Source: Candidatus Ratteibacteria bacterium (lineage in GTDB: Bacteria; CAZDME01; JAYEMH01). From it: a DNA stretch of 52,660 nucleotides. The position numbers were made by a program, and so were the translations under genes. Positions within the stretch are counted from its first letter, which is position 1, and the number at the start of each line of letters is the position of its first letter. The notes beneath the pieces were generated by a model. The model saw nothing but the letters and a program-made list of their open reading frames with translations. It was not told the origin of the DNA and did not search any database. Where the stretch lies: contig JAYEMH010000005.1 of the NCBI GenBank assembly GCA_034717985.1, positions 1 through 52,660 of the forward strand, given 5' to 3'. Below, in pieces: positions 3,638 to 28,436 of this stretch.

Positions 3638-4228
3638 TTACCTCCTCGTTAAATATTCAACCGCTTTTTTAAAACTATATTCAAAATACAGCTCTACAAA
3701 CTTAATTACATCACCACCTTTAGCGCATCCAAAACAGTAAAAACTATTGCTGTCCGGATAGATAAAGAAACTTGGGTGTTTTTCTTGATGAAAAGGACAG
3801 AGGGCTGTATGGTTCTTTCCTTGCTTTCTTAATTTCAAAAAAGACTGGGCTATTTCTAAAATGGGGGATAATCTTGCCTGTTCAATTTTCTCCTGAGTAA
3901 GCATTTTGGGGCTTGGAAGTTTGCCTTTAGAGAAAAGAAATAGTCTCTTTAACCTCTGTGTTTGCCTATTATTCTCCAATACTTCATCGGCTATTTCCAT
4001 TTTCACCACCTCTCGCCAGAACCAGCGGGAAAACTCATCTTTTACCCTATTTCTCACTATCTTTAAGTTATGCCTAATGACTCCCTTAATTTCTTTTTCT
4101 GTTTCTTCCCGCTCTTTTAGCTTTTCCGGGATGACAGCTTTTGCTTCAGGAAATATATTAAGAAGTTCTCTTTCAGTAAGCCGGGGAGCTTGGGATGGGG
4201 AGTATAGATTAGTGGATATTTTCGTCAT
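3638..4228 (-). CDS. CHC2 (DnaG/primase-type) zinc-finger protein
   Basis: 196 aa. The C-terminal CPFHQEKHPSFFIYPDSNSFYCFGCAKGGDVIKFV is the CHC2 zinc-finger signature. I could not recognise a TOPRIM domain. Confidence 0.7.
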   Translation of the reverse strand: MTKISTNLYSPSQAPRLTERELLNIFPEAKAVIPEKLKEREETEKEIKGVIRHNLKIVRNRVKDEFSRWFWREVVKMEIADEVLENNRQTQRLKRLFLFSKGKLPSPKMLTQEKIEQARLSPILEIAQSFLKLRKQGKNHTALCPFHQEKHPSFFIYPDSNSFYCFGCAKGGDVIKFVELYFEYSFKKAVEYLTRR

Positions 4229-4532
4229 TTAAAAAGTCCTCCTTTATCCGTTCTTTTTCTGCCCTTTCCATCAATTCTTCAAACTTCCCTATCACTGCCT
4301 TTTCAATCGTCTTTGATACCTCTTTAGTAATCGGATGAAAGCAATTTACCTTTGCCCCATTTGCTAAAACTTTTATAGGATAAACAAGTCTGTAACCTTC
4401 TTGATTTAACCGGGAATAAAGCGCTATATCGCCAACATAAAAAGAATCATTTAAGACAAAAGTAACAAAGGCAAGTAGTCCGTTGCGTGGCTTACAAGGA
4501 ATTATCTGTATTTCGGAAAGGTCTATTTTCAT
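4209..4532 (-). CDS. SpoVG-like protein
   Basis: From MKIDLSEIQIIPCKPRNGLLAFVTFVLNDSFYVGDIALYS...GYRLVYPIK...FHPITKEVSKTIEKAV, the spacing matches recalled SpoVG (..GxhxAhhohxhxxxFhVxDIxh...P.....HPI......I..AV). An AAGGAGAAAG RBS precedes the ATG at 4532; the ORF track starts it at 4562. Confidence 0.55.
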   Translation of the reverse strand: MKIDLSEIQIIPCKPRNGLLAFVTFVLNDSFYVGDIALYSRLNQEGYRLVYPIKVLANGAKVNCFHPITKEVSKTIEKAVIGKFEELMERAEKERIKEDFLNDENIH

Positions 4533-4576
4533 ATTCTTGCTTTCTCCTTTCTCTATCATCACATTCTTAACCTAAA

Positions 4577-4608
4577 TAAAAAAACCTGTAAGTATTTCTA
4601 CCTACAGG
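4577..4608 (-). terminator. Hairpin plus U-tract downstream of the 4648-5550 gene
   Basis: On the minus strand, CCTGTA...TACAGG is followed by TTTTTTTA. Confidence 0.45.
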
Positions 4609-4647
4609 CTAACATATTTCCTAAATTTGCGATATTACAGCAAGTCG

Positions 4648-5550
4648 CTATTTGCTACTATACTTCTTTACATACTTTTTTTGCCTCCATTTATAAAGAT
4701 TCTTTCTATCATAGTCTAAATCTCTAAGTTCTTCAATTTTCACATCATTTATGGGATTAGCATTTGCATCAAAAAACGATTTGTCAGTATCAACAAATTC
4801 CATTGCATAGAAATTTTTACATCTAAATAACTGCCCCCCCTTAATTTTGTACTTTTCGATAAGTTTACCAATATCAATTTTTTCAACATGCTTTCTTTCA
4901 GTATCAGCATATACTTCAATCCATATTACTTTAACCCCTTCCGGGCTACAAATTTTTATCTTATAATAGCTCTTCTCTTTACACATAGGATAGTTTTTGA
5001 CTTTATATTCTTTCCTAACCTTTCTAACGGTCTTCCATGAATCTCTTATATGCTTTTTTTTGGTGTCCCCATATATTTCAATAAATATTCTTTTTTTACC
5101 CTTGTCCTCAAAAACTTTAATCAAACATGGGTAATCATTTGCAGAATATAAAAGCCAGCGGTTATATATTACAAATGTAGTCAAAGGCATACGGAACCTT
5201 TCAGGCAAGTTAGAATAATGCAAAAGGTCTGTAATTTTCTCTTGAAATGCGGCCTTTCTGCTTTTTCCTATTTGGTAACCACGCTTTCTTAAATCGTAAT
5301 CATAATAAGAAATACGTTCTAAGTTTTTGAACTTTTCCATATTACGCTTTTCTTTATCTTTATTGATTTCCGTTACACGCATAAATCTTTTTACCCCAAG
5401 AGCAGGAATACCAAACTTATCTCTAATCTGCCAAATTTGATTAACAAATTCTGAATCCCCAAGCAAATACTTGAGTTGTTTAATATATTTTCCGGATCGC
5501 TTTTCAAGTTCCTCTATAGTACCAGGTATCCATGTTGCAATCTCTCTCAC
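4648..5550 (-). CDS. Hypothetical protein with an internal duplication
   Basis: 300 aa, lysine/tyrosine-rich. The segments KRIFIEIYGDTKKKHIRDSW and VKVIWIEVYADTERKHVEKI are internal repeats. Its start overlaps the upstream stop by 4 nt. Confidence 0.55.
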   Translation of the reverse strand: MREIATWIPGTIEELEKRSGKYIKQLKYLLGDSEFVNQIWQIRDKFGIPALGVKRFMRVTEINKDKEKRNMEKFKNLERISYYDYDLRKRGYQIGKSRKAAFQEKITDLLHYSNLPERFRMPLTTFVIYNRWLLYSANDYPCLIKVFEDKGKKRIFIEIYGDTKKKHIRDSWKTVRKVRKEYKVKNYPMCKEKSYYKIKICSPEGVKVIWIEVYADTERKHVEKIDIGKLIEKYKIKGGQLFRCKNFYAMEFVDTDKSFFDANANPINDVKIEELRDLDYDRKNLYKWRQKKYVKKYSSK

Positions 5551-6422
5551 TTCTTCCTCATTTCAAATGCAGGGACAGTCCCACTGGGTCTTGCGGTAGA
5601 AGGCTTTCTACCTAACCCCCCGCTAAGTTCCAATACTCCATCCGCAGTTCTTCGTCCGGTAATAGGTGTTTCGGTTCTACTATATCCCCTTGGTGTAGGA
5701 ATGGGAGCAACCCATTCAGGCATAACTCCAGCTTGGCGCACTTCCTCCGGAGTATAACCACAAGCAGATATATAAAGTTCTATCTCTGATGATGGTGCTC
5801 CCATCCTCGCCATTTTCTGAACATTTCTTTTAACCCGCAATAAATCAGCAGTCGTTATATCTCTGGGTTGTTTGGATCTTTTTGCTCGTGCTGAATTTTC
5901 TGATTTCCTAAACTCTATTTTACTATCCTCATCTGCGGATTCAGCATCATTGGCTGACGACTCGGCATTCTCAGCTGCGGATTTAGCATCATTGGCTGAC
6001 GACTCGGCATTCTCAGCTGCGGATTTAGCATTATTGGCTGACGACTCGGCATCCTCAGCTGCGGATTTAGCATTATTGGCTAACGACTCGGCATCCTCAG
6101 CATCAGACATTGCTTTTTTAGCGTAATATTGAGCTTCTTCAAGGGTATCAGCCATATATGCTTTTCTTGCATAAGTATAGGCATCACTTGCATAACTTGC
6201 AGCGTCATTTGTATAATTTGCGGCACTGCTTGCATAAGTTGCAGCATCCTTTGCATAATTTGCGGCACTGCTTGCATAAGTTGCAGCATCCTTTGCATAA
6301 CTTGCGGCACTGCCTGCATAAATTGCAGCATCATTTATATCTCCATAAGCAAATACAAATCTTCTGCTACACAAAATTAGAATACAAAATCCAAGTAAAA
6401 TAATAAGTGATTTTTTTCTCAT
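5547..6422 (-). CDS. Secreted tandem-repeat protein (two arrays of 16-aa repeats)
   Basis: 291 aa. The N-terminal MRKKSLIILLGFCILILCS looks like a signal peptide. It contains AASYAKDAATYASSAANY-type and AEDAESSANNAKSAAENAESSANDAKSA-type repeats, encoded by 48-bp DNA tandem repeats at ~5930-6100 and ~6180-6330. Confidence 0.6.
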   Translation of the reverse strand: MRKKSLIILLGFCILILCSRRFVFAYGDINDAAIYAGSAASYAKDAATYASSAANYAKDAATYASSAANYTNDAASYASDAYTYARKAYMADTLEEAQYYAKKAMSDAEDAESLANNAKSAAEDAESSANNAKSAAENAESSANDAKSAAENAESSANDAESADEDSKIEFRKSENSARAKRSKQPRDITTADLLRVKRNVQKMARMGAPSSEIELYISACGYTPEEVRQAGVMPEWVAPIPTPRGYSRTETPITGRRTADGVLELSGGLGRKPSTARPSGTVPAFEMRKK

Positions 6423-6498
6423 TTATGAACCTCCTTAAACACAATTAGAATTGACTTATTTTTTGTCCATTTTCTACCAGTCCATATTGGGAGCTTTC

Positions 6499-6527
6499 AT
6501 TTTACTGCTTATATAGCCCGGTGTCAA
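6499..6527 (-). promoter_or_regulatory. Sigma70-like promoter: TTGACA, 17-nt spacer, TAAAAT (minus strand)
   Basis: Reverse complements are tgtcaa at 6522-6527 and atttta at 6499-6504, with a 17-nt spacer. It lies upstream of the 5547-6422 gene. Confidence 0.5.
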
Positions 6528-6561
6528 TCCTGAATGCATATCTTTATTAAACCGATATATT

Positions 6562-7590
6562 CTAAAACTCCAATTTTTCTACGGCCTTATCTATATGCTC
6601 ATCGGCAAGATGTGAATATATCATCGTTGTCTCTATATCTGCATGCCCCATCAGCTTCTTTACCGTAGGTAAATCCACCCCTTTCATAACCAGATGACTG
6701 GCAAAGGTATGGCGAAGGGTATGTAGCTTTGTAACATCCGGGAAACCAGAACGTTTAGTCAATCGCATAAGCCTTTTTCTTAATCGGTTATTCTCGATGG
6801 GATTCCCTTTGCCATCGTGAAATACTAAATTGCCTTTTTTGTTTTTCTCCTTCTGCTTTTTGAGAAGGTTAAATAATCCGTTGTTTAAAGGTATTTGTCT
6901 TTCATCCGTTTTAGGACTCCAGCCCTTCTTAACGGCTATTTTGATTTTTCTTCTATTTAAGTCTATATCTGTCCACTCAAGGTTTTGCAATTCACTTTTT
7001 CTCATCCCGGTATTTAAGAAAGTATAAAATATTGGATATTCCCATTCATTACAATTCTCTAATAAGATTTTACATTCTTCCTCTGAAAGAAATCTTGGGG
7101 CAATATGGTTTGTAATCTTTAACATTTTGACACTTTCGGTGGGATTTTCTTTCGTATAGCCCCAGGTTTTGGCCAGATTAAACACTGCCCGCAAGGTCTG
7201 CAACTCCATATTTATAGTTTTGTTTTGTGCCCTCTGGTCAAAACGAAATTTTTTATAATCTTCAAATGTTTTAGGGTTAAGATGGGATATCTTGGCAATA
7301 AAAGGGTGATGGGCTAAAAATCTCTTAAAATTATCTACAATAGCCCGGTATCTTTTTTGCGTGGAGGGGGTATGATTAGTTTGTGAATAAGAGAAGAAAT
7401 CGCTGAATAACTTATTTAGATTTTCGTCTTTTTTTTCAAAACCTGCTTCACCTTTGGCAATTTTAACTTCTACATCTTTTAATGCCAATTCAGCGATTTT
7501 TTTTGAAGCGCCTATTATTTTTCTGATTCGCCTACCGTTTATCCGGAAGTCAATAAAATACTTCCCATTCTTTTTCCGAAGAGTTGCCAC
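6562..7590 (-). CDS. int: Tyrosine-type site-specific recombinase/integrase
   Basis: 342 aa with a GTG start. It has an N-terminal SAM-like core-binding region. The C-terminal TGMRKSEL, HTLRHTFASHLV and GHADIETTMIYSH give the R...HxxR...Y catalytic layout. It is adjacent to the target tRNA. Confidence 0.9.
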   Translation of the reverse strand: MATLRKKNGKYFIDFRINGRRIRKIIGASKKIAELALKDVEVKIAKGEAGFEKKDENLNKLFSDFFSYSQTNHTPSTQKRYRAIVDNFKRFLAHHPFIAKISHLNPKTFEDYKKFRFDQRAQNKTINMELQTLRAVFNLAKTWGYTKENPTESVKMLKITNHIAPRFLSEEECKILLENCNEWEYPIFYTFLNTGMRKSELQNLEWTDIDLNRRKIKIAVKKGWSPKTDERQIPLNNGLFNLLKKQKEKNKKGNLVFHDGKGNPIENNRLRKRLMRLTKRSGFPDVTKLHTLRHTFASHLVMKGVDLPTVKKLMGHADIETTMIYSHLADEHIDKAVEKLEF

Positions 7591-7724: not shown

Positions 7725-7813
7725 TGGCGGAGAGGGAGGGATTCGAACCCCCGTGACTTTTCAGTCAAGACGATTTCGAGTCGTCCCCGTTATGACCACT
7801 TCGGTACCTCTCC
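7725..7813 (-). tRNA. tRNA-Ser (anticodon CGA), CCA encoded
   Basis: Reverse complement: GGAGAGG acceptor stem, anticodon stem GACGA/TCGTC with loop CTCGAAA, long variable arm, GGTTCGAATCC T-loop, terminal GCCA. Confidence 0.9.
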
Positions 7814-17469: not shown

Positions 17470-17531
17470 CTCTCATCCTTTTTTAAAGGAGGTTTAGCCT
17501 CCTTCAACCCTGCACCCAACGTGGTGCGGGG

Positions 17532-19162: not shown

Positions 19163-19603
19163 TCATACATCAAAAATAATCTCTACCGAACAAATCCCGC
19201 CGTTGTTTTTTTTTATGGTTAAGTTATGGTAGGTAACGGCCTTAATCTCGCGTTTAAGAGGGGTCTTATTATACTCGATTTTCTGCCCTTTTACTGCGGC
19301 CGTCAAAAAAAATTTATTTTCTCTTTCGCCGAGGGAAGAAATGTCAAACTCTATCCCCAGCCAGCGCTCCTCCGTCAGCTTATACAGCAATTCACCCAGC
19401 CAGCTGACTAACAACTCCTCGACGCTTAAACCGGAAACCTTAATCCTCGTTTCTTCCCGGGGAGTGAAATCATTTAGGTCATCCAGCACCAGGCTCAACA
19501 TCCCCCTGGCCGCAGTAGAAAAAAGCTCTTTTAAATCCCGGCCAAAAACGCGTAAGCCAATATCAGCCGTATGGGGAATTATTTCATACCTTGCCATTGG
19601 CAT
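19163..19603 (-). CDS. Archease
   Basis: [28 protein letters not shown]... and the C-terminal AVTYHNL.. fit the archease pattern (..HTAD...). The start at 19603 or 19597 overlaps the gyrA 3' end by 14-20 nt. Confidence 0.8.
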
Positions 19604-22049
19604 CTTGTTCGTAACTGAACACCGGGGCAATCGCCCTGACTTGATCGCCGGATTTCAGGGTGATTAAACGCACCCCCTGGGTGCTGCGGCCCATCACCCG
19701 AATGGGCTTGATGGGAATACGAATTATCATTCCGTGGGCGGTGATAATCATTACCTCATCTTCGTCTTTAACCGATTCAATCCCCACCACGCTGCCTTTG
19801 CGCTCCCCCACTTTAATATTAATCACCCCGCTGCCCCCGCGGCTCTGAGAGCGATAGGCCTTAAATTGCGTTCGTTTCCCGTATCCCTGATTGGTAACGG
19901 TCAGAAGAGCCATCTCTTTCTGGACAATTTTCATGCCGACCACTTTATCTTCTTTGGTCAGCCTGATTCCTTTAACCCCTCTGGCGGCCCGGGCTATCGG
20001 CCGAACATCTTTCTCAGAGAAGCGGATACATTTGCCCTGGCGGGTTGCCAGGAGGATTTCTTCCTTACCGCTGGTCAGGATAACGTTAACAAGTTTATCT
20101 TCCTCATCTATCTTTATCGCCGCAATTCCCCCTTTGCGCGGGCGGCTATAAGCCTCTAAATTAGTTTTTTTAACCACGCCCTTTTCGGTGGCCATCAACA
20201 AAAAGTGCCGGCTGTCAAACTTTCTAACCGGGATAGTGGCCGAAATGCTTTCCTGGCTGTTCAGCCGGAGCAGATTAACGATGGCTTTTCCTTTGGAAAG
20301 ACGCCCGGCTTGAGGAATTTCGTAAACCTTAACCCAATAAACCCGGCCCCCATCGGTGAAAACCAGAATATAGTCGTGGGTGGAGGCAATGAAAAAATGT
20401 TCGATAAAATCTTCCTCTTTAGTTCCGGCGCCGGTGACGCCCTTGCCCCCCCTTGCCTGTCTTCGGTAGGTGCTGACCGGGAGCCGCTTGATATATCCGG
20501 TGTGGGATATGGTAATAATCATATCTTCCTCGGCGATTAAATCCTCTATGGCTAACTCTTCTTCCTCTTCGACAATCTCTGTCCTCCGGGGATCGCTATA
20601 TTTATCCTTGATTACTAATAATTCCTCTTTAATTACCTCCCAGACCTTTTTCTCGCTGCCTAAAATAGCCTGAAGCCGTTCGATATTCTTAATTAGCTCC
20701 AAATATTCAGCGTCGATTTTATCTCTCTCCAGGCGGGTGAGACGCTGTAAGCGCATATCAAGAATAGCCTGGGCCTGTTCCCGGCTCAACTTAAAATTAA
20801 TCATCAATTTCTCGCGGGCTGCCTCCGGGCTTGAGGCACTGCGAATTGTTTTAATGACCGCATCGAGATTTTTTAAAGCAACCTTTAATCCTTCCAGAAT
20901 ATGGGCCCGTTTTTCGGCTCCCCGGAGCTCAAATTGACTCCGCCTGACCACCACCACCCGGCGATGGTCCAGATAGTGATGGAGCATCTGTGAAAGATTG
21001 AGAACCCTGGGCTGGCCGTGAACCAGGGCCAGTAGAATTATCCCGAAAGTGCTTTGAAGCTGGGTGTGCTTATTCAGTTGATTAAGGACCGTCCGGGGTT
21101 CAGCGTCCCGTTTCAACTCAACAATAATGCGTATCCCATCTTTATCTGATTCATCCCTGAGGTCGCTCGCTCCTTCAACCCGCCCGCTTCGGATGAGTCC
21201 GGCAATAGATTCAAGCAAAGAAGATTTGTTGACCTGGAAAGGAATTTCGCTGATGACAATATTTGCCTTGCCGCTTTTTATTTCTTCGATATTCGTCCGC
21301 GCCCTCATTTTTATAATCCCCCGCCCGGTCCGATAGGCGGTTTTAATCGCCTTGTTTCCCAAAACAAAGGCTCCGGTAGGAAAATCCGGCCCGGGAATAT
21401 GCTCCATTAGTTCCTCAACCCCGGCCTCTGGATTATCAATCAGGTAAAGCAGGCCGCCAATAACCTCACCCAAATTGTGCGGCGGGATGTTACAGGCCAT
21501 ACCCACGGCAATCCCTGAAGAGCCGTTAACCAAAAGGCTGGGTATGCCCGCCGGTAAAACACGCGGCTCCTGAAGGGATTCATCAAAATTGAGGGAGAAA
21601 TCAACTGTTTCTTTTTCAATATCATGAAGCATCTCTTCGCTTATCGGCGCCAGCCGCGCCTCGGTATATCTCATCGCCGCCGCCGCATCTCCGTCAATCG
21701 AACCCCAGTTTCCCTGGCCGTCAATGAAGGGATAGCGCGAGGCAAACTCCTGAACTAAACGGACCATGGTGTCATAAACAGCCATATCGCCATGCGGGTG
21801 ATATTTCCCTAATGTCTCTCCCACGATGCGGGCGGATTTCTTATAAGGTTTATTGGCCGTCATCCCCATATCATACATCGCATAGAGAATCCGTCGGTGG
21901 ACGGGCTTTAATCCGTCACGCACGTCAGGAAGGGCCCGGCCCACAATTACGCTCATTGCATAATCAAGATAAGACTTCTGCATCTCATCTTCAATATTTA
22001 CGGGAATAATCTTTTCTCTCCGTTCAGCTTTTTCTTTTTGTTCAACCAT
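19584..22049 (-). CDS. gyrA: DNA gyrase subunit A
   Basis: 821 aa. It contains [12 protein letters not shown] and AAAMRYTE (the active-site Tyr region), followed by C-terminal beta-pinwheel repeats. Confidence 0.97.
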
Positions 22050-22087
22050 TTAAAACTCCTTTTAAGTCTCCGTCTTTTTTCTAAATT

Positions 22088-22109
22088 CTATGGAAGCCCG
22101 ACTTCGATA
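22088..22109. repeat. Short hairpin repeat CTATGGAAGCCCGACTTCGATA in the gyrA leader
   Basis: The same 22-23-nt hairpin recurs at 28517-28539 and 47991-48013. Confidence 0.7.
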
Positions 22110-22137
22110 ATCATTTTTCCCAAAACCAATCTGTTTT

Positions 22138-22166
22138 AGTATCCCATAAAAAAAAAGAGAAGTCAA
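22138..22166 (-). promoter_or_regulatory. Candidate gyrA promoter: TTGACT, 17-nt spacer, GATACT (minus strand)
   Basis: Reverse complements are agtcaa at 22161-22166 and agtatc at 22138-22143, with a 17-nt spacer. Confidence 0.4.
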
Positions 22167-22199
22167 TAAAAAAACCCCGTCGTAAAACGGGGTTTTTTT
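22165..22199 (-). terminator. Bidirectional intrinsic terminator
   Basis: AAAAAAACCCCGTcgtaaaACGGGGTTTTTTT lies directly downstream of the 22234-22947 gene. Confidence 0.75.
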
Positions 22200-22233
22200 C
22201 TCCATTCCATCATTTAGCAGGGAGAGTTCTGGT

Positions 22234-22947
22234 TCAGCGCTTTAATCCTGTAAACCTCGTTAGAGAATCCCTTTTGCCTCTGTCACTTCTTTCCAGATAC
22301 TTTTGCGCATCATTGTTTCCCTTAACATCCTTCTCTGACGGGGTAAATCCTGTCCGAAATTCTTTTTTTGGTCTAAACCTTTCGCGGCCCGGGTCAAATA
22401 GATTCTTTTTCGCCCTCAGGCGAAGTTTTGGTGCTGTCCCTTCCCGAGTAGGCGGTGCTTTTACGAACTCCCGGCCATTTTTGGCAAATTCTTTTACTTT
22501 AGCAAATAATAATTCTTTGAGTTCTCTTCTCTTTTCGGCCGTTTTGATTTTTTGAGTTATCTTTTTCACTATTTTTATACTGGCAGATACGGTCTTTTTT
22601 CCAATTTTGCTTTCGGCCCATCCCCTTAGCTTCTCCATATCCGCCTTAAACGCCGATAAATCAAAATCAGGTTTAGGAAAATTGTTGAAAAGGCGGGTTC
22701 CCCGGGCCGGGGGGGTAACCGGGCCCGAGGGTTTGGGGATAAAGGGGTTAAATTGGGCTTTAGCGTTGGGGATATGGGCGCGGGCAAAAACTTTCTCGTT
22801 TATCTCTCTAAAATAGATTCTTTGGTCAAGGGTTTGCTTTATGTTTTTAAATGAATTGGGTATGTTTATACCCCAGGCAGCATTGGATTGAAACAAAACT
22901 CCAATTATAATAATAGATATGAATAACTTTTTCTTACTTCTTTTCAT
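22234..22947 (-). CDS. Secreted basic protein, no recognisable family
   Basis: ATG at 22947 gives MKRSKKKLFISIIIIGVLFQSNAAWG (signal peptide). The rest is lysine/arginine/proline-rich. Confidence 0.55.
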   Translation of the reverse strand: MKRSKKKLFISIIIIGVLFQSNAAWGINIPNSFKNIKQTLDQRIYFREINEKVFARAHIPNAKAQFNPFIPKPSGPVTPPARGTRLFNNFPKPDFDLSAFKADMEKLRGWAESKIGKKTVSASIKIVKKITQKIKTAEKRRELKELLFAKVKEFAKNGREFVKAPPTREGTAPKLRLRAKKNLFDPGRERFRPKKEFRTGFTPSEKDVKGNNDAQKYLERSDRGKRDSLTRFTGLKR

Positions 22948-23170
22948 TCCCAACACCACTTTGTTTAATTACCAACCCCGGCTTGACAATGTGGGCAATA
23001 GATGTATGCTTTCCGGCCTTTTTCAAAACAAGAAACTCAGTAAAGGGTGGAGCGGAACTAACAAACATCAAGCAGAGGAAAAAAGCGCTTCCTTTGAGCA
23101 ATGCCTGGTTGATACACCTGTCAGCCGAACGACACAGGGTAATTACCGCTTTCTGCCTCTCGCTCAACAT
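22934..23170 (-). CDS. Possible 78-aa small protein between the second riboswitch-like leader and the 22947 gene
   Basis: A GGAGAGG RBS lies 3 nt before the ATG at 23170, and there is one hydrophobic segment (AFFLCLMFVSSAPPF). There is no homology support, and it overlaps the next start. Confidence 0.2.
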   Translation of the reverse strand: MLSERQKAVITLCRSADRCINQALLKGSAFFLCLMFVSSAPPFTEFLVLKKAGKHTSIAHIVKPGLVIKQSGVGNEKK

Positions 23171-23214
23171 TTTCCTCTCCTTCTTGGTTTTCAAAATCCC
23201 TGTCTATCCGTGTT

Positions 23215-23360
23215 AACAAAAAAGCCGAACTCCCAAAGTTTCTTTATCCTCCGGCAGCCCGGCTATCCTTCGATAAACTCAGGATCCGTGGCTTTGCTTG
23301 CCCTGAACCCTACGTTGGTTCAGGGCGTCCCTGCCTTACGGCAGGTTTGCCTTTTTCGGG
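23215..23360 (-). promoter_or_regulatory. GEMM-I (c-di-GMP-I)-like riboswitch, copy 2, with an extra inserted hairpin
   Basis: Minus-strand RNA: AAAAAGGCAAACCUGCCGUAAGGCAGGGACGC[CCUGAACCAACGUAGGGUUCAGG]GCAAGCAAAGCCACGGAUCCUGAGUUUAUCGAAGGAUAGCCGGGCUGCCGGAGG. This is followed by a weaker hairpin and UUUUUU. About 47 nt are nearly identical to copy 1. Confidence 0.6.
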
Positions 23361-23385
23361 ATTTTCTCACCCTCGAAAAACCCTG

Positions 23386-25716
23386 CTAACGAGACTTTAT
23401 CGGGTTGAAAATGCTGCGTTGAGACTCTTTCGGCTTATATCCTCCAGAATAACCACCATTCCTGGAAGATTTCTTAACTGCGACAGGGATGCTGCTTCGT
23501 ATAGTTGTGCTTGGCAGCTTAATTTTATTACCTCCGCGCCTTCTCACAGCTTTCTTCTTTATAGCAAAGGCATCTGCCGGAATGGGTCCAAGCCTCTCCA
23601 TCCGTATTCCCCTCGCCGCTTCTTTCTGAGCACGTCTCTTTTTATACTCTTTTTTTCTTGCTTCTTTCTTGGCCGCGTTCTCCGCTTGTTCCTTTGCTCG
23701 TCTTTTTTCTATCTTTTCCATCCGTGCTTTTCTTGCCGCTTCTCTCTTGGCCAGCAATTCAGCGCGTCTCTTTTCTCGCTCTTCTCTTTTCGCTTTCATC
23801 TCCGCTTCTTTCTTGGCCGCGTTCTCCGCTTGTTCCTTTGCTCGTCTTTTTTCTATCTTTTCCATCCGCGCTTTTCTTGCCGCTTCTACCTTGGCCTTTC
23901 TCTCAGCCCGCAATTCAGCGCGTCTCTTTTCTCGCTCTTCTCTTTTCGCTTCCATCTCCGCCCGATAAGCAGCAAGTTTTTCCTTATGTTTTTCTATCCT
24001 GGCTCTAAAAGCCGCTCTTCTTGCTTCTTTCCTGCCCTTTCTCTCCTCCTGAGCAGCAGCAATTTTCTCTTTACGCTCTTTCCTTCTCGCTTCCATTTCC
24101 GCCCGATGAGCGGCAATCTCGGCCTGATAAAGAGTGTTCTTCTCTTTGTGCTCTCCTCTTTCGACCTCTCTTTCAGCCCGATCTACCGTATGTTTCTCCT
24201 TAAGCTCCGCAATTTTCGCTTCCATCTCCGCCCGATAAGCAGCAAGTTTTTCCTTATGTTTTTCTATCCTGGCTTTAAAAGCCGCTCTTCTTGCCTCTTT
24301 CCTGGCCTTTCTCTCAGCTCGCATTGATGTATATTTCTCTTTAAGCTCTTCTTTTTTCGTTTTTATTACCTCTTTCGCAGTTTCCTTAGTGTCCCAGATG
24401 GACCCCTGCTTTTCCTCGATGGTGTCGAGGTCGTTTGCGATCGTGCTGGTGTCAACCGTTGCTGGCGTTGTAGTGTTACCAATGACAATCTCTTCTCTTG
24501 CCTCGCCTCCAATGACAATCTCTTCCCTTGGATTACCACCTATTTCCACTGCTTCCTTATCTGTTACGATGGTTTCAGGTTGAGTGTTTATATTAACCAG
24601 ATAATTCTTTGCTATCTGCAGCTTCTCTATGTTAGAAGGATCCGATTCTCTTTCCATCTGCCTTTCTATGGTGCCAATCATTCCTTGTATGCTTTTTAGA
24701 TAGTCATCCTCTGCCTCGGGAGTGATAACTGTTGTCCCTGCTGGATTCAGGACAGTAATTTCTCCGGTTACAAGGTCTAAGGTGCTTATTCCAAATCCTC
24801 CCGAAGCTCCACTTTCTTCTGTCTGAAGTTTATCGTCCGTGGCTATAGTTGCTCTTTTAGCTACTGCAACTCCACTAGGGAGTTCATCTAAAGTAACTAT
24901 ATCCATTTCCGGTAGTACTGTTCCCGGCTCTTCTGGAGCTGGCTCGTCCGCCCCACCAATGACAATCTCTTCTCTTGCCTTACCACCAATGACAATCTCG
25001 TCCCTTGGCTCGCCACCAATGACAATCTCTTCTCTTGGTTCACCACCAATGACGATTTCTTCCTCCCTCGGTGTAAGGAGTTCATCCTCGGGGTCGGTAA
25101 CCGTGGCATCAGTGTCCCAGCTGGACCCCTGCTTTTCCTCGATGGTGTCGAGGTTGTTTGCGATCGTGCTGGTGTCAACCGTTGCTGGCGTTGTAGTGTT
25201 ACCAATGACAATCTCTTCTCTTGGCTCGCCTCCAATGACATACGCTTCCGCTGGCACTGTAGCCGCATCTTCAGATGTATATTTCTCTTTAAGCTCTTCT
25301 TTTTTCGTTTTCCTCTCCGCCCGAGCTGCAACCTTCTCTACATGTCTTCCTTTTGTCTCTTTGAAATCGGCTCGAGTATCCAATGGTTGCTCTTTTGCCA
25401 AATCGTCATTTTCTTTCCATGTGTAATAAAGCTCTATCTCTTTCTCTGTCAACGGTGTAATCACCTGGGCGTAGAACATACCCGGCTCATGAATGCCCCG
25501 TCCGGCATCCCGCCAACATAATTGTCCATTTTCAACAATTACTCGAGACCAATCAGGCTTCAGGGTATCATCGGCAAATGCCTTATCAACTCCCAGAATT
25601 AAAAACATCCCTGCTACCACTAATACTATTAATCCTGCTTTACTTATTCTAATCATTTTATTTCCCTTCCTTTTTTTCCGCTTTGGTTGTTTTGCCTCTT
25701 TGTTTATCATTTCCAT
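23386..25716 (-). CDS. Large secreted repeat protein with GGEPREEIVIG repeats and a long Lys/Arg/Glu/Ala coiled-coil region
   Basis: The start is at ATG 25716 or 25710, after the leader terminator. MIRISKAGLIVLVVAGMFLILG is a signal/anchor. It has 11-aa (I)VIGGEPREE repeats, a duplicated NTTTPATVDTSTIAN.LDTIEEKQGS.WDT module, and C-terminal AERKARKEARRAAFKARIEKHKEKLAAYRAEMEAK-type repeats. Confidence 0.75.
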   Translation of the reverse strand: MEMINKEAKQPKRKKRKGNKMIRISKAGLIVLVVAGMFLILGVDKAFADDTLKPDWSRVIVENGQLCWRDAGRGIHEPGMFYAQVITPLTEKEIELYYTWKENDDLAKEQPLDTRADFKETKGRHVEKVAARAERKTKKEELKEKYTSEDAATVPAEAYVIGGEPREEIVIGNTTTPATVDTSTIANNLDTIEEKQGSSWDTDATVTDPEDELLTPREEEIVIGGEPREEIVIGGEPRDEIVIGGKAREEIVIGGADEPAPEEPGTVLPEMDIVTLDELPSGVAVAKRATIATDDKLQTEESGASGGFGISTLDLVTGEITVLNPAGTTVITPEAEDDYLKSIQGMIGTIERQMERESDPSNIEKLQIAKNYLVNINTQPETIVTDKEAVEIGGNPREEIVIGGEAREEIVIGNTTTPATVDTSTIANDLDTIEEKQGSIWDTKETAKEVIKTKKEELKEKYTSMRAERKARKEARRAAFKARIEKHKEKLAAYRAEMEAKIAELKEKHTVDRAEREVERGEHKEKNTLYQAEIAAHRAEMEARRKERKEKIAAAQEERKGRKEARRAAFRARIEKHKEKLAAYRAEMEAKREEREKRRAELRAERKAKVEAARKARMEKIEKRRAKEQAENAAKKEAEMKAKREEREKRRAELLAKREAARKARMEKIEKRRAKEQAENAAKKEARKKEYKKRRAQKEAARGIRMERLGPIPADAFAIKKKAVRRRGGNKIKLPSTTIRSSIPVAVKKSSRNGGYSGGYKPKESQRSIFNPIKSR

Positions 25717-25736
25717 TTCACCTACATCCTCACTAA

Positions 25737-25854
25737 TAAAAAATCCGGATTGCCTTCCCTTCGGCAACCCGGCTTTCCTTCGATAAACTCAGGATCCGTG
25801 GCTTTGCGACTCCACCTTGCGATGAATTAGCCTTTTTCGGTCTTTTTCGATTTC
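25737..25854 (-). promoter_or_regulatory. GEMM-I (c-di-GMP-I)-like riboswitch, copy 1, with an overlapping intrinsic terminator
   Basis: Minus-strand RNA: AAAAAGGCUAAUUCAUCGCAAGGUGGAGUCGCAAAGCCACGGAUCCUGAGUUUAUCGAAGGAAAGCCGGGUUGCCGAAGG. It is followed by the stem CCGGGUUGCC/GGCAAUCCGG (10 bp) and UUUUUU. The blocks match recalled Vc2/GEMM-I conserved segments (GGCAAAC, GNRA hairpin, ACGCAAAGCC, GGGGUUACCGAUGG). Confidence 0.75.
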
Positions 25855-25860
25855 ATTGTA

Positions 25861-25889
25861 AGTATAGCATAAAATCTGCCCTTTGTCAA
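25861..25889 (-). promoter_or_regulatory. Sigma70-like promoter of the riboswitch leader: TTGACA, 17-nt spacer, TATACT (minus strand)
   Basis: Reverse complements are tgtcaa at 25884-25889 and agtata at 25861-25866, with a 17-nt spacer. Confidence 0.6.
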
Positions 25890-25943
25890 ATTTTTTTTGT
25901 TTTTTTTGGGATTCCCCTTCCAACCAGCACGGATGGACTGGGA

Positions 25944-28436
<2,493 letters not shown>

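Follow-up and report, generated by a model that had tools for sequence, protein, structure and literature searches.

The stretch of DNA analysed here, referred to as the window, comprises the 52,660 nucleotides (nt) of contig JAYEMH010000005.1 (GenBank assembly GCA_034717985.1, deposited as a Candidatus Ratteibacteria bacterium), and the region of interest is its minus strand from 25889 to 22234, which sits between gyrB (25944-28433) and gyrA (19584-22049). In the direction of transcription this region carries a promoter, aptamer 1, terminator 1, gene 1, aptamer 2, terminator 2, gene 2 and gene 3. Both aptamers resemble class-I riboswitch aptamers for cyclic di-guanosine monophosphate (c-di-GMP), the c-di-GMP-I or GEMM-I type, so that two complete aptamer-plus-terminator units lie on one predicted transcript, and the 2.3-kb coding gene between them departs from the classical tandem arrangement. 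We propose, with a probability of about 0.8 and on the basis of sequence comparison, that the region is a c-di-GMP-activated three-gene operon under two class-I ON riboswitches, a tandem doublet that has been split by a variable gene. Direct support for this proposal comes from aptamer identity, the pocket nucleotides, covariation, the overlap of aptamers with terminators, and synteny; ligand binding, the ON direction, a graded two-gate logic and a cell-surface role of the products are its predictions.

A cmscan of the whole window against Rfam at gathering thresholds found four matches, namely two tRNAs (tRNA-Ser) and the two aptamers, and both aptamers match the c-di-GMP-I clan at or above gathering, in agreement with an initial annotation of this DNA that had recognized two GEMM-I-like leaders. 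Aptamer 1 (25758-25841, minus strand) has the c-di-GMP-I fold, a P2 capped by a GCAA tetraloop, and the pocket nucleotides G/A/C, and is matched at 25759-25841 by RF03167 (c-di-GMP-I-GGC) with 59.6 bits at a cut-off of 59 and an E-value of 1.3e-11 (down to 6e-14). Aptamer 2 (23248-23361, minus strand), which begins 25 nt past the stop codon of gene 1, has the same fold and pocket nucleotides, a GUAA tetraloop and an inserted hairpin, and is matched at 23250-23361 by RF01051 (c-di-GMP-I) with 43.1 bits; the gathering threshold of 35 for RF01051, which the initial annotation had singled out as a check on its assignment, is thus exceeded. In a local search this second copy also scores 50.6 bits with RF03167, which is under the cut-off of 59 for that family. 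Clan competition in the whole-window cmscan hid one more match of the clan that reached its own cut-off, and this match must overlap copy 1, because the RF03167 score of copy 2 (50.6) is below the cut-off and yet above the listed 43.1. A covariance model of our own, built from six aptamers, gives 81.1 bits for copy 1 and 129.6 bits for copy 2, and matches 20 aptamers on 12 contigs of relatives (the loci, or contigs, of relatives are labelled L001-L092), all of them in close relatives save one located elsewhere, in L016. The 3' halves of the two window aptamers are identical at 47 of 50 positions, consistent with the stretch of about 47 nt noted earlier as nearly shared, whereas the two L001 copies differ in the tops of their P3 helices, which suggests recent gene conversion in the genome of the window.

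The ligand in c-di-GMP-I aptamers is contacted by G20, A47 and C92 in the numbering of Vc2 (PMC4744006). Position 20 is G in both window copies and in all 20 related aptamers, with no instance of A20; the A47 column holds A (CGC-A-AAGCC) in the same set; and position 92 is C in both window copies and in all aptamers of the relatives but one. Both copies and 19 of the 20 related aptamers therefore have the whole triplet together with the interhelical C and G. The interhelical C (in the GAC-type triplet on the 3' side of P2) and G (in the AG bulge of P3) are invariant in the 20 aptamers and so carry no covariation signal for their pairing. GNRA loops cap P2 in both window copies (GCAA and GUAA), and P3 is short, with no recognizable canonical 11-nt receptor. 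Because A47, G20 and C92 are present in both copies, we take both window RNAs to be parent-type c-di-GMP-I aptamers, with c-di-GMP as the predicted ligand. The second aptamer of L003 (2246-2353), which has U at the C92 position and a long, branched P2 that lacks a GNRA loop, may be a specificity variant.

A different assignment would place these RNAs in the c-di-GMP-I-GGC variant class, which would have another ligand and would not sense c-di-GMP. Among the Rfam models, RF03167 does score highest with copy 1 and with each related aptamer, and the window RNAs share with that family a compact P3 and an included P1 stem. However, copy 2 and every relative score under the RF03167 cut-off (33.7-58.2 bits for the related aptamers), and the Rfam consensus lines themselves differ at the base after ACGC, which is A in RF01051 and G in RF03167 (GGGACGCGAAgCc); in all 20 aptamers, as in the window, the base at this A47 column is A. 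The label 'GGC' reportedly goes back to Weinberg and co-workers in 2017 and denotes the identity of the pocket triplet, with G in place of A47. We regard the RF03167 label as a scoring artefact that probably stems from the inclusion of P1 and a short P3 in this model, and membership of the variant class seems extremely improbable. A best-scoring variant family such as c-di-GMP-I-GGC can thus mislabel an RNA when the defining nucleotide goes unchecked. The aptamers could also sense another cyclic dinucleotide, such as 3'3'-cyclic GMP-AMP (cGAMP) or c-di-AMP, as GEMM-Ib variants do: single pocket changes are known to retune the GEMM-I scaffold (PMC7266159; PMC9481103), and the second aptamer of L003 has U at C92. 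The window RNAs share their scaffold with the c-AMP-GMP (GEMM-Ib) aptamers, but GEMM-Ib has A20 where they have G20, and both copies carry the c-di-GMP combination of G20 and C92, so we consider such a ligand very unlikely.

Covariation was computed on 17 distinct sequences, with 500 column shuffles and slid 3' partners as controls. Standard pairs fill 94.8% of the cells, both sides have changed in 12 of 32 pairs, and all five measures beat every one of the 500 shuffles, while pairing drops to 24-47% when the 3' partners are slid. P2 shows compensatory changes in 5 of its 6 pairs and P3 double changes in 5 pairs; the basal two GC pairs of P2 are invariant and uninformative either way. The P2 and P3 helices, whose covariation had been proposed earlier as a further check, are thus supported. 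The aptamer-only sequences of both copies also fold into P2 and P3, and the minimum free energy folds of the full leaders form the terminator.

The aptamers overlap with the hairpins that follow them. Terminator 1 (25738-25772, minus strand) has a 10-bp stem, CCGGGUUGCC/GGCAAUCCGG at 25772-25745, followed by A and six U (U-tract at 25743-25738), and its 5' arm consists of the P3 3' strand of aptamer 1, C92 and the start of the 3' strand of P1. Terminator 2 (23218-23263, minus strand) is longer and interrupted, reading GCCGGGCU-G-CCGGAG / CUUUGG-G-AGUUCGGC (stem 23263-23224, six U at 23223-23218), with the P3/P1 3' strand of aptamer 2 as its 5' arm. The strand CCGG(G/A)(U/C)UGCC, made up of the 3' side of P3, an unpaired G, C92 and the first base of P1-3', doubles as the 5' arm of a downstream hairpin in 18 of the 18 clade aptamers examined, and a run of at least four U lies past the hairpin in 16 of these, the other two (L087 4703-4785 and L089 924-1006) having no more than a broken U-rich tail. 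The terminator arms covary in the orthologues (for example, GGCAAUCCGG vs GGUAACCCGG, and a change from G-C to A-U in L091), and so do the orthologous long terminators of the terminator 2 type. The double use of the aptamer 3' strand as an arm of a downstream hairpin, from which the initial annotation had predicted an ON switch, is therefore a conserved trait of the clade. Because an aptamer 3' strand shared with an intrinsic terminator is the standard anti-terminator geometry, we infer with good support that both switches are ON switches acting through ligand-dependent anti-termination. In such a scheme, the P3 3' strand, C92 and the start of P1-3' would pair with the downstream arm and form the terminator when the ligand is absent, and with c-di-GMP bound the shared strand would be held in the aptamer and RNA polymerase would read through.

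The relatives show the two units in several arrangements. A GyrB scan covering one genome per species found a best match of 79% identity and the rest at about 60%, in Candidatus Omnitrophota, and by its GyrB the host of the window is placed in that phylum. On all contigs of the relatives the operon genes follow gyrB, and they precede gyrA on those contigs long enough to include it. In L006, L087, L089/L090 and L091, the promoter is followed by two aptamer-terminator units only about 30 nt apart and then by the 78-aa gene (aa, amino acids) that corresponds to gene 2 of the window, the same 78-aa and ~205-aa genes following in each. In the window, L001 and L003, a gene of 0.7-2.3 kb (2.3 kb in the window) stands between the two units; in L002, and apparently L088, the intervening gene is present and the second unit is absent; and L092 has a single unit. 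L004 lacks the intervening gene though its 78-aa protein is 96% identical to that of the window, and its positions 1790-1895 hold an intact unit 1 followed by only the 5' half of aptamer 2, this remnant being joined at a GGGA microhomology to sequence that is normally found past terminator 2. We therefore view the two switches of the window, from this comparison of loci, as the halves of a conserved tandem doublet split here by a hypervariable gene. The related loci thus present adjacent, gene-split, single-unit and decayed-second-unit states of a doublet, which can inform the origin of multi-gate riboswitches.

The spacer between gyrB and gyrA measures about 3.9 kb in the window and at most 300 nt in 57 of 76 other loci of the GyrB scan, and because of this difference the three-gene operon is best regarded as a clade-specific insertion between the two genes. 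With our covariance model, the gyrB-gyrA spacers of the 80 other loci of the scan (L006-L085, mostly Omnitrophota metagenome-assembled genomes) showed no aptamer. In L006 the doublet follows gyrB at a distance of about 4 kb, and the contig stops short of any gyrA; the one aptamer of L016 is placed 1 kb beyond gyrA, in a different context. Between gyrB and the tandem riboswitches of L006, the closest sequenced relative, the opposite strand (3689-7370, minus strand) carries genes whose products have prepilin-type N-termini (GVTLIES..., GLTLIEIV...) as well as one for a large secreted protein.

A single promoter appears to serve the whole unit. It is of the sigma-70 type (25861-25889, minus strand), reads TTGACA-17-TGnTATACT (TTGACA-17-TGCTATACT) downstream of an A-rich tract, agrees with the consensus at 11 of 12 positions in addition to the TG extension, and is the top promoter-like site in 21900-26100 (4.2 kb scanned). 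It coincides with the near-consensus promoter annotated initially and is also kept upstream of aptamer 1 in L001, L002, L004 and L006. In a scan for the sigma-70 consensus, the minus strand showed no promoter-like site from 23200 to 25860, hence none upstream of copy 2, as had been remarked before. Alternatively, copy 2 could head its own transcript from an unrecognized promoter in the 3' end of gene 1, making two independent units: few transcripts might get past terminator 1 and the long gene 1 as far as copy 2, and only sigma-70-type sites would have been seen in the scan. Yet no such site was found over that interval, and in the relatives about 30 nt separate the units, so that copy 2 evolved as the downstream unit of one leader; we consider a separate promoter quite unlikely. 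With both units on one transcript, gene 1 would need one read-through event and the 78-aa and 237-aa genes (genes 2 and 3) two, and with two gates the distal genes would therefore respond more steeply or at a higher level of c-di-GMP.

In comparison with known systems, the window RNAs resemble Vc2 and Vc1 of Vibrio cholerae (RF01051) in the three-helix aptamer, the GNRA loop of P2, G20/A47/C92, the interhelical C-G and the AAA linker, and Vc1, which precedes a gene for a secreted adhesin, is an ON switch as well (PMC4744006). They differ from these in the short P3, which has no obvious 11-nt tetraloop receptor, in the 10-bp hairpin that branches from the base of P2 in copy 2, in the host phylum, Omnitrophota, and in targets that belong to no known family. 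Doublets of c-di-GMP-I units in tandem occur frequently, with 347 counted (Sherlock et al. 2022, PMC9481103), and such tandems, of which Bc3-5 of Bacillus thuringiensis is a further example, have been shown to sharpen the response (PMC4759541). Like such doublets and triplets, the window has two complete units with their own terminators and the same predicted ligand on one transcript, and doublets of the classical kind are found in L006, L087, L089 and L091; what sets the window, L001 and L003 apart from these is the 0.7-2.3-kb gene between the units, together with a first unit that is predicted to gate all genes and a second that would gate only the distal ones. The seven riboswitches within 7 kb of Desulfobacca acetoxidans, which are separated by open reading frames (ORFs) (PMC9481103), offer a parallel in that c-di-GMP-I-type aptamers recur along a gene cluster with ORFs between them and terminators of their own; set against that series, both inputs here are predicted to be c-di-GMP. 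The regulator is thus of a known type, and what is less ordinary is the phylum, the variable gene that splits the doublet and the portable hairpin beside the pocket. A brief literature check found no description of c-di-GMP riboswitches in Candidatus Omnitrophota, and the present pair adds examples that are well supported by sequence to this uncultured phylum.

The hairpin inserted in copy 2, hairpin B (23300-23326, minus strand), had been noticed in the initial annotation and proves to be kept in five aptamers: unit 2 of the window and of L001, and unit 1 of L002, L003 and L004. It has a 10-bp stem and a 7-nt loop, GCCCUGAACC-AACGUAG-GGUUCAGGGC, then AA, which accounts for the ~29 extra nt of copy 2 relative to copy 1, and it is located between the interhelical C ('C44') and the P2-closing GC, directly before the A47 equivalent; its exact boundary is ambiguous, given the invariant GC on both flanks. 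The stem shows one compensatory and two wobble changes over the five aptamers. In all five, the other conserved pocket and tertiary nucleotides are intact, and P2 and P3 still covary. In the leaders of L002 and L004 the aptamer with hairpin B is the only intact one and would have to function if regulation has been retained there, which argues that such an aptamer works.

A hairpin of this type is also found outside any aptamer. Positions 17508-17531 of the window (minus strand) read CCCCGCACCACGTTGGGTGCAGGG, a hairpin CCCCGCACC-ACGUUG-GGUGCAGGG that is identical to hairpin B of L004 at 24 of 24 positions. It lies between a DUF4139/LSM-like gene, whose stop codon it directly follows, and rtcB, and a second hairpin comes next (fold z-score -3.1). 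It has the look of either a palindromic repeat of the dispersed kind or an RNA hairpin with a regulatory role. Because this 24/24-identical copy lies outside any aptamer, hairpin B looks like a separable, repeated module. A strict pattern scan of metagenome contigs found one further candidate, in L086, which we attribute to chance, as it lies in a high-GC coding region and has no match to our covariance model; beyond this locus the scan found no other hairpin-B aptamer, and a scan of viral contigs for the hairpin found nothing.

These observations bear on whether copy 2 might have decayed or been repurposed, the hairpin having disrupted the pocket and left a constitutive or protein-controlled attenuator in which only the terminator, or a factor binding to hairpin B, would count. 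The insertion sits beside the nucleotide that intercalates into the ligand, the identical hairpin at 17508-17531 occurs outside aptamers, and aptamer 2 is decayed in L004 and absent in L002 and L088, all of which would fit such a history. It is opposed by the preservation of pocket and tertiary nucleotides in all five hairpin-B aptamers, whose P2 and P3 covary, by the status of the hairpin-B aptamer as the sole intact one in the L002 and L004 leaders, and by the fact that copy 2 passes the RF01051 cut-off despite the 39-nt insertion; we regard decay as unlikely. A functional hairpin-B aptamer, which we prefer, could be carried further in a speculative and still doubtful direction, in which hairpin B would be a portable module, grafted onto the base of P2, that makes a four-helix subclass of c-di-GMP-I with altered affinity or kinetics, or with co-control by a trans-acting factor recognizing the hairpin. 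Were this so, the riboswitch would have a second, protein- or RNA-borne input and would govern a surface-protein cassette variable in presence and absence, in an ultrasmall and possibly host-attached Omnitrophota cell.

Several points count against the proposal of a c-di-GMP-activated operon as a whole. P1 is short and nearly invariant and so gains little support from covariation, and the alignment used for the covariation figures was fitted to our own model and is biased towards that structure; an independent MAFFT alignment of six sequences recovers the same pairs with few mismatches. Copy 1 passes RF03167 by 59.6 against 59 only, and this best model is that of a variant family. Hairpin B adjoins A47 and could change or abolish ligand binding by copy 2. 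Finally, no GGDEF, EAL or PilZ gene was found among the 33 window ORFs scanned, so that c-di-GMP metabolism is assumed for the organism.

The first regulated gene, gene 1 (23386-25656, minus strand), encodes a hypervariable secreted repeat protein of 756 aa from its conserved MIRISK start, the likely start at 25656 having been set by alignment with the counterparts in relatives. The 793-aa ORF given in the initial annotation is a mechanical one that begins inside terminator 1 and is replaced by this shorter reading. An in-frame ATG at 25716 with a good ribosome-binding site (AGGUGA) would add a K/R-rich extension of 20 aa and give 776 aa; the short ORF of L002 that corresponds to 25656-25716 is out of frame with the main gene, and for this reason the upstream ORF may be a separate leader peptide or non-coding. 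Behind a signal peptide, the protein has an acidic repeat half in which the EEIVIG motif occurs six times, a coiled-coil-like half rich in K, R, E and A, and a conserved basic tail, and 40% of its residues are charged. Its counterparts in L001-L003 and L088 have 229-398 aa, and the intervening genes (229-756 aa) share only the signal peptide (MIRI[SN]KAGLIVL...) and the basic tail of about 60 aa, the middles being unrelated or shuffled repeats. When the whole 776-aa protein was the query of a word-indexed homologue search, its sole match was to itself, low-complexity words having swamped the candidates; an exhaustive search with the N-terminal 432 aa gave short partial domain matches only; and an exact-sequence look-up of the 774-aa protein found no record.

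Gene 2 (22934-23170, minus strand), the first gene past copy 2 and its predicted immediate target, encodes a 78-aa protein with an isoelectric point (pI) of about 10 and three conserved Cys, behind a strong ribosome-binding site (AAGGAGAGG). Conservation within the operon is highest for this gene, with 67-96% identity in 10 relatives as found with a profile of the 78-aa protein, and it had been overlooked in the initial annotation, which placed copy 2 between the repeat protein and the secreted basic protein. An AlphaFold2 model (predicted local distance difference test score, pLDDT, of 70) has one helix and a five-stranded sheet, and found no significant match in the PDB (best Foldseek E-value 0.49). 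The basic protein is the product of gene 3 (22234-22947, minus strand), which overlaps gene 2 by 14 nt; it has 237 aa (about 205 aa in the relatives), a pI of 10.8, an N-terminal segment resembling a signal peptide, and five homologues at 49-86% identity. Its AlphaFold2 model is poor, with a pLDDT of 49 that is too low for a structure search. Searches of Pfam and NCBIfam with the three operon proteins gave no match, even with the threshold relaxed to E <= 1, which bears out part of their earlier description as orphans; with homologues in close relatives, they are not orphans in the strict sense. The signal peptides are a reading of the protein sequences. The matrix or adhesin function suggested in the initial annotation is speculative, though a surface or matrix role would be plausible for targets of c-di-GMP. 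The three family-less proteins are hereby marked as predicted outputs of c-di-GMP regulation, a starting point for the study of their function.

The operon probably ends at a terminator of the form CCCCGU-loop-ACGGGG with A7/U7 flanks, read from the sequence at about 22168-22192 (minus strand), and directly past it the promoter scan found a promoter-like site for gyrA (22166-22138, minus strand). On the other side, the segment 28976-39568 has the genes that surround a chromosomal origin, with dnaA, dnaN and gyrB on one strand and rnpA, yidC, mnmE, parA and parB on the other, and the c-di-GMP operon therefore has its place in a gene neighbourhood that is among the most conserved in bacteria. 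At the far end of the window, the segment 370-7813 is probably an integrated mobile element, in which a tyrosine integrase gene (6562-7590) adjoins tRNA-Ser(CGA) (7725-7813), and past these are an NYN-domain gene, a gene for a DnaG-type zinc ribbon and several family-less ORFs. Among the relatives, the gyrA of L087 (6043-9804) encodes 1253 aa including an intein with a LAGLIDADG endonuclease domain. The motif ACACGGAT is a recurrent element of intergenic spacers in this clade, where 2-4 copies often stand at intervals of about 10 nt; it is seen past terminator 2, past gyrB and, in L002, past the DUF4139 gene (window 23206-23213; L001 9735; L002 9772-9814; L003 1107-1124 and 2419; L007 4851-4868), and the window has three copies of it against 0.65 expected.

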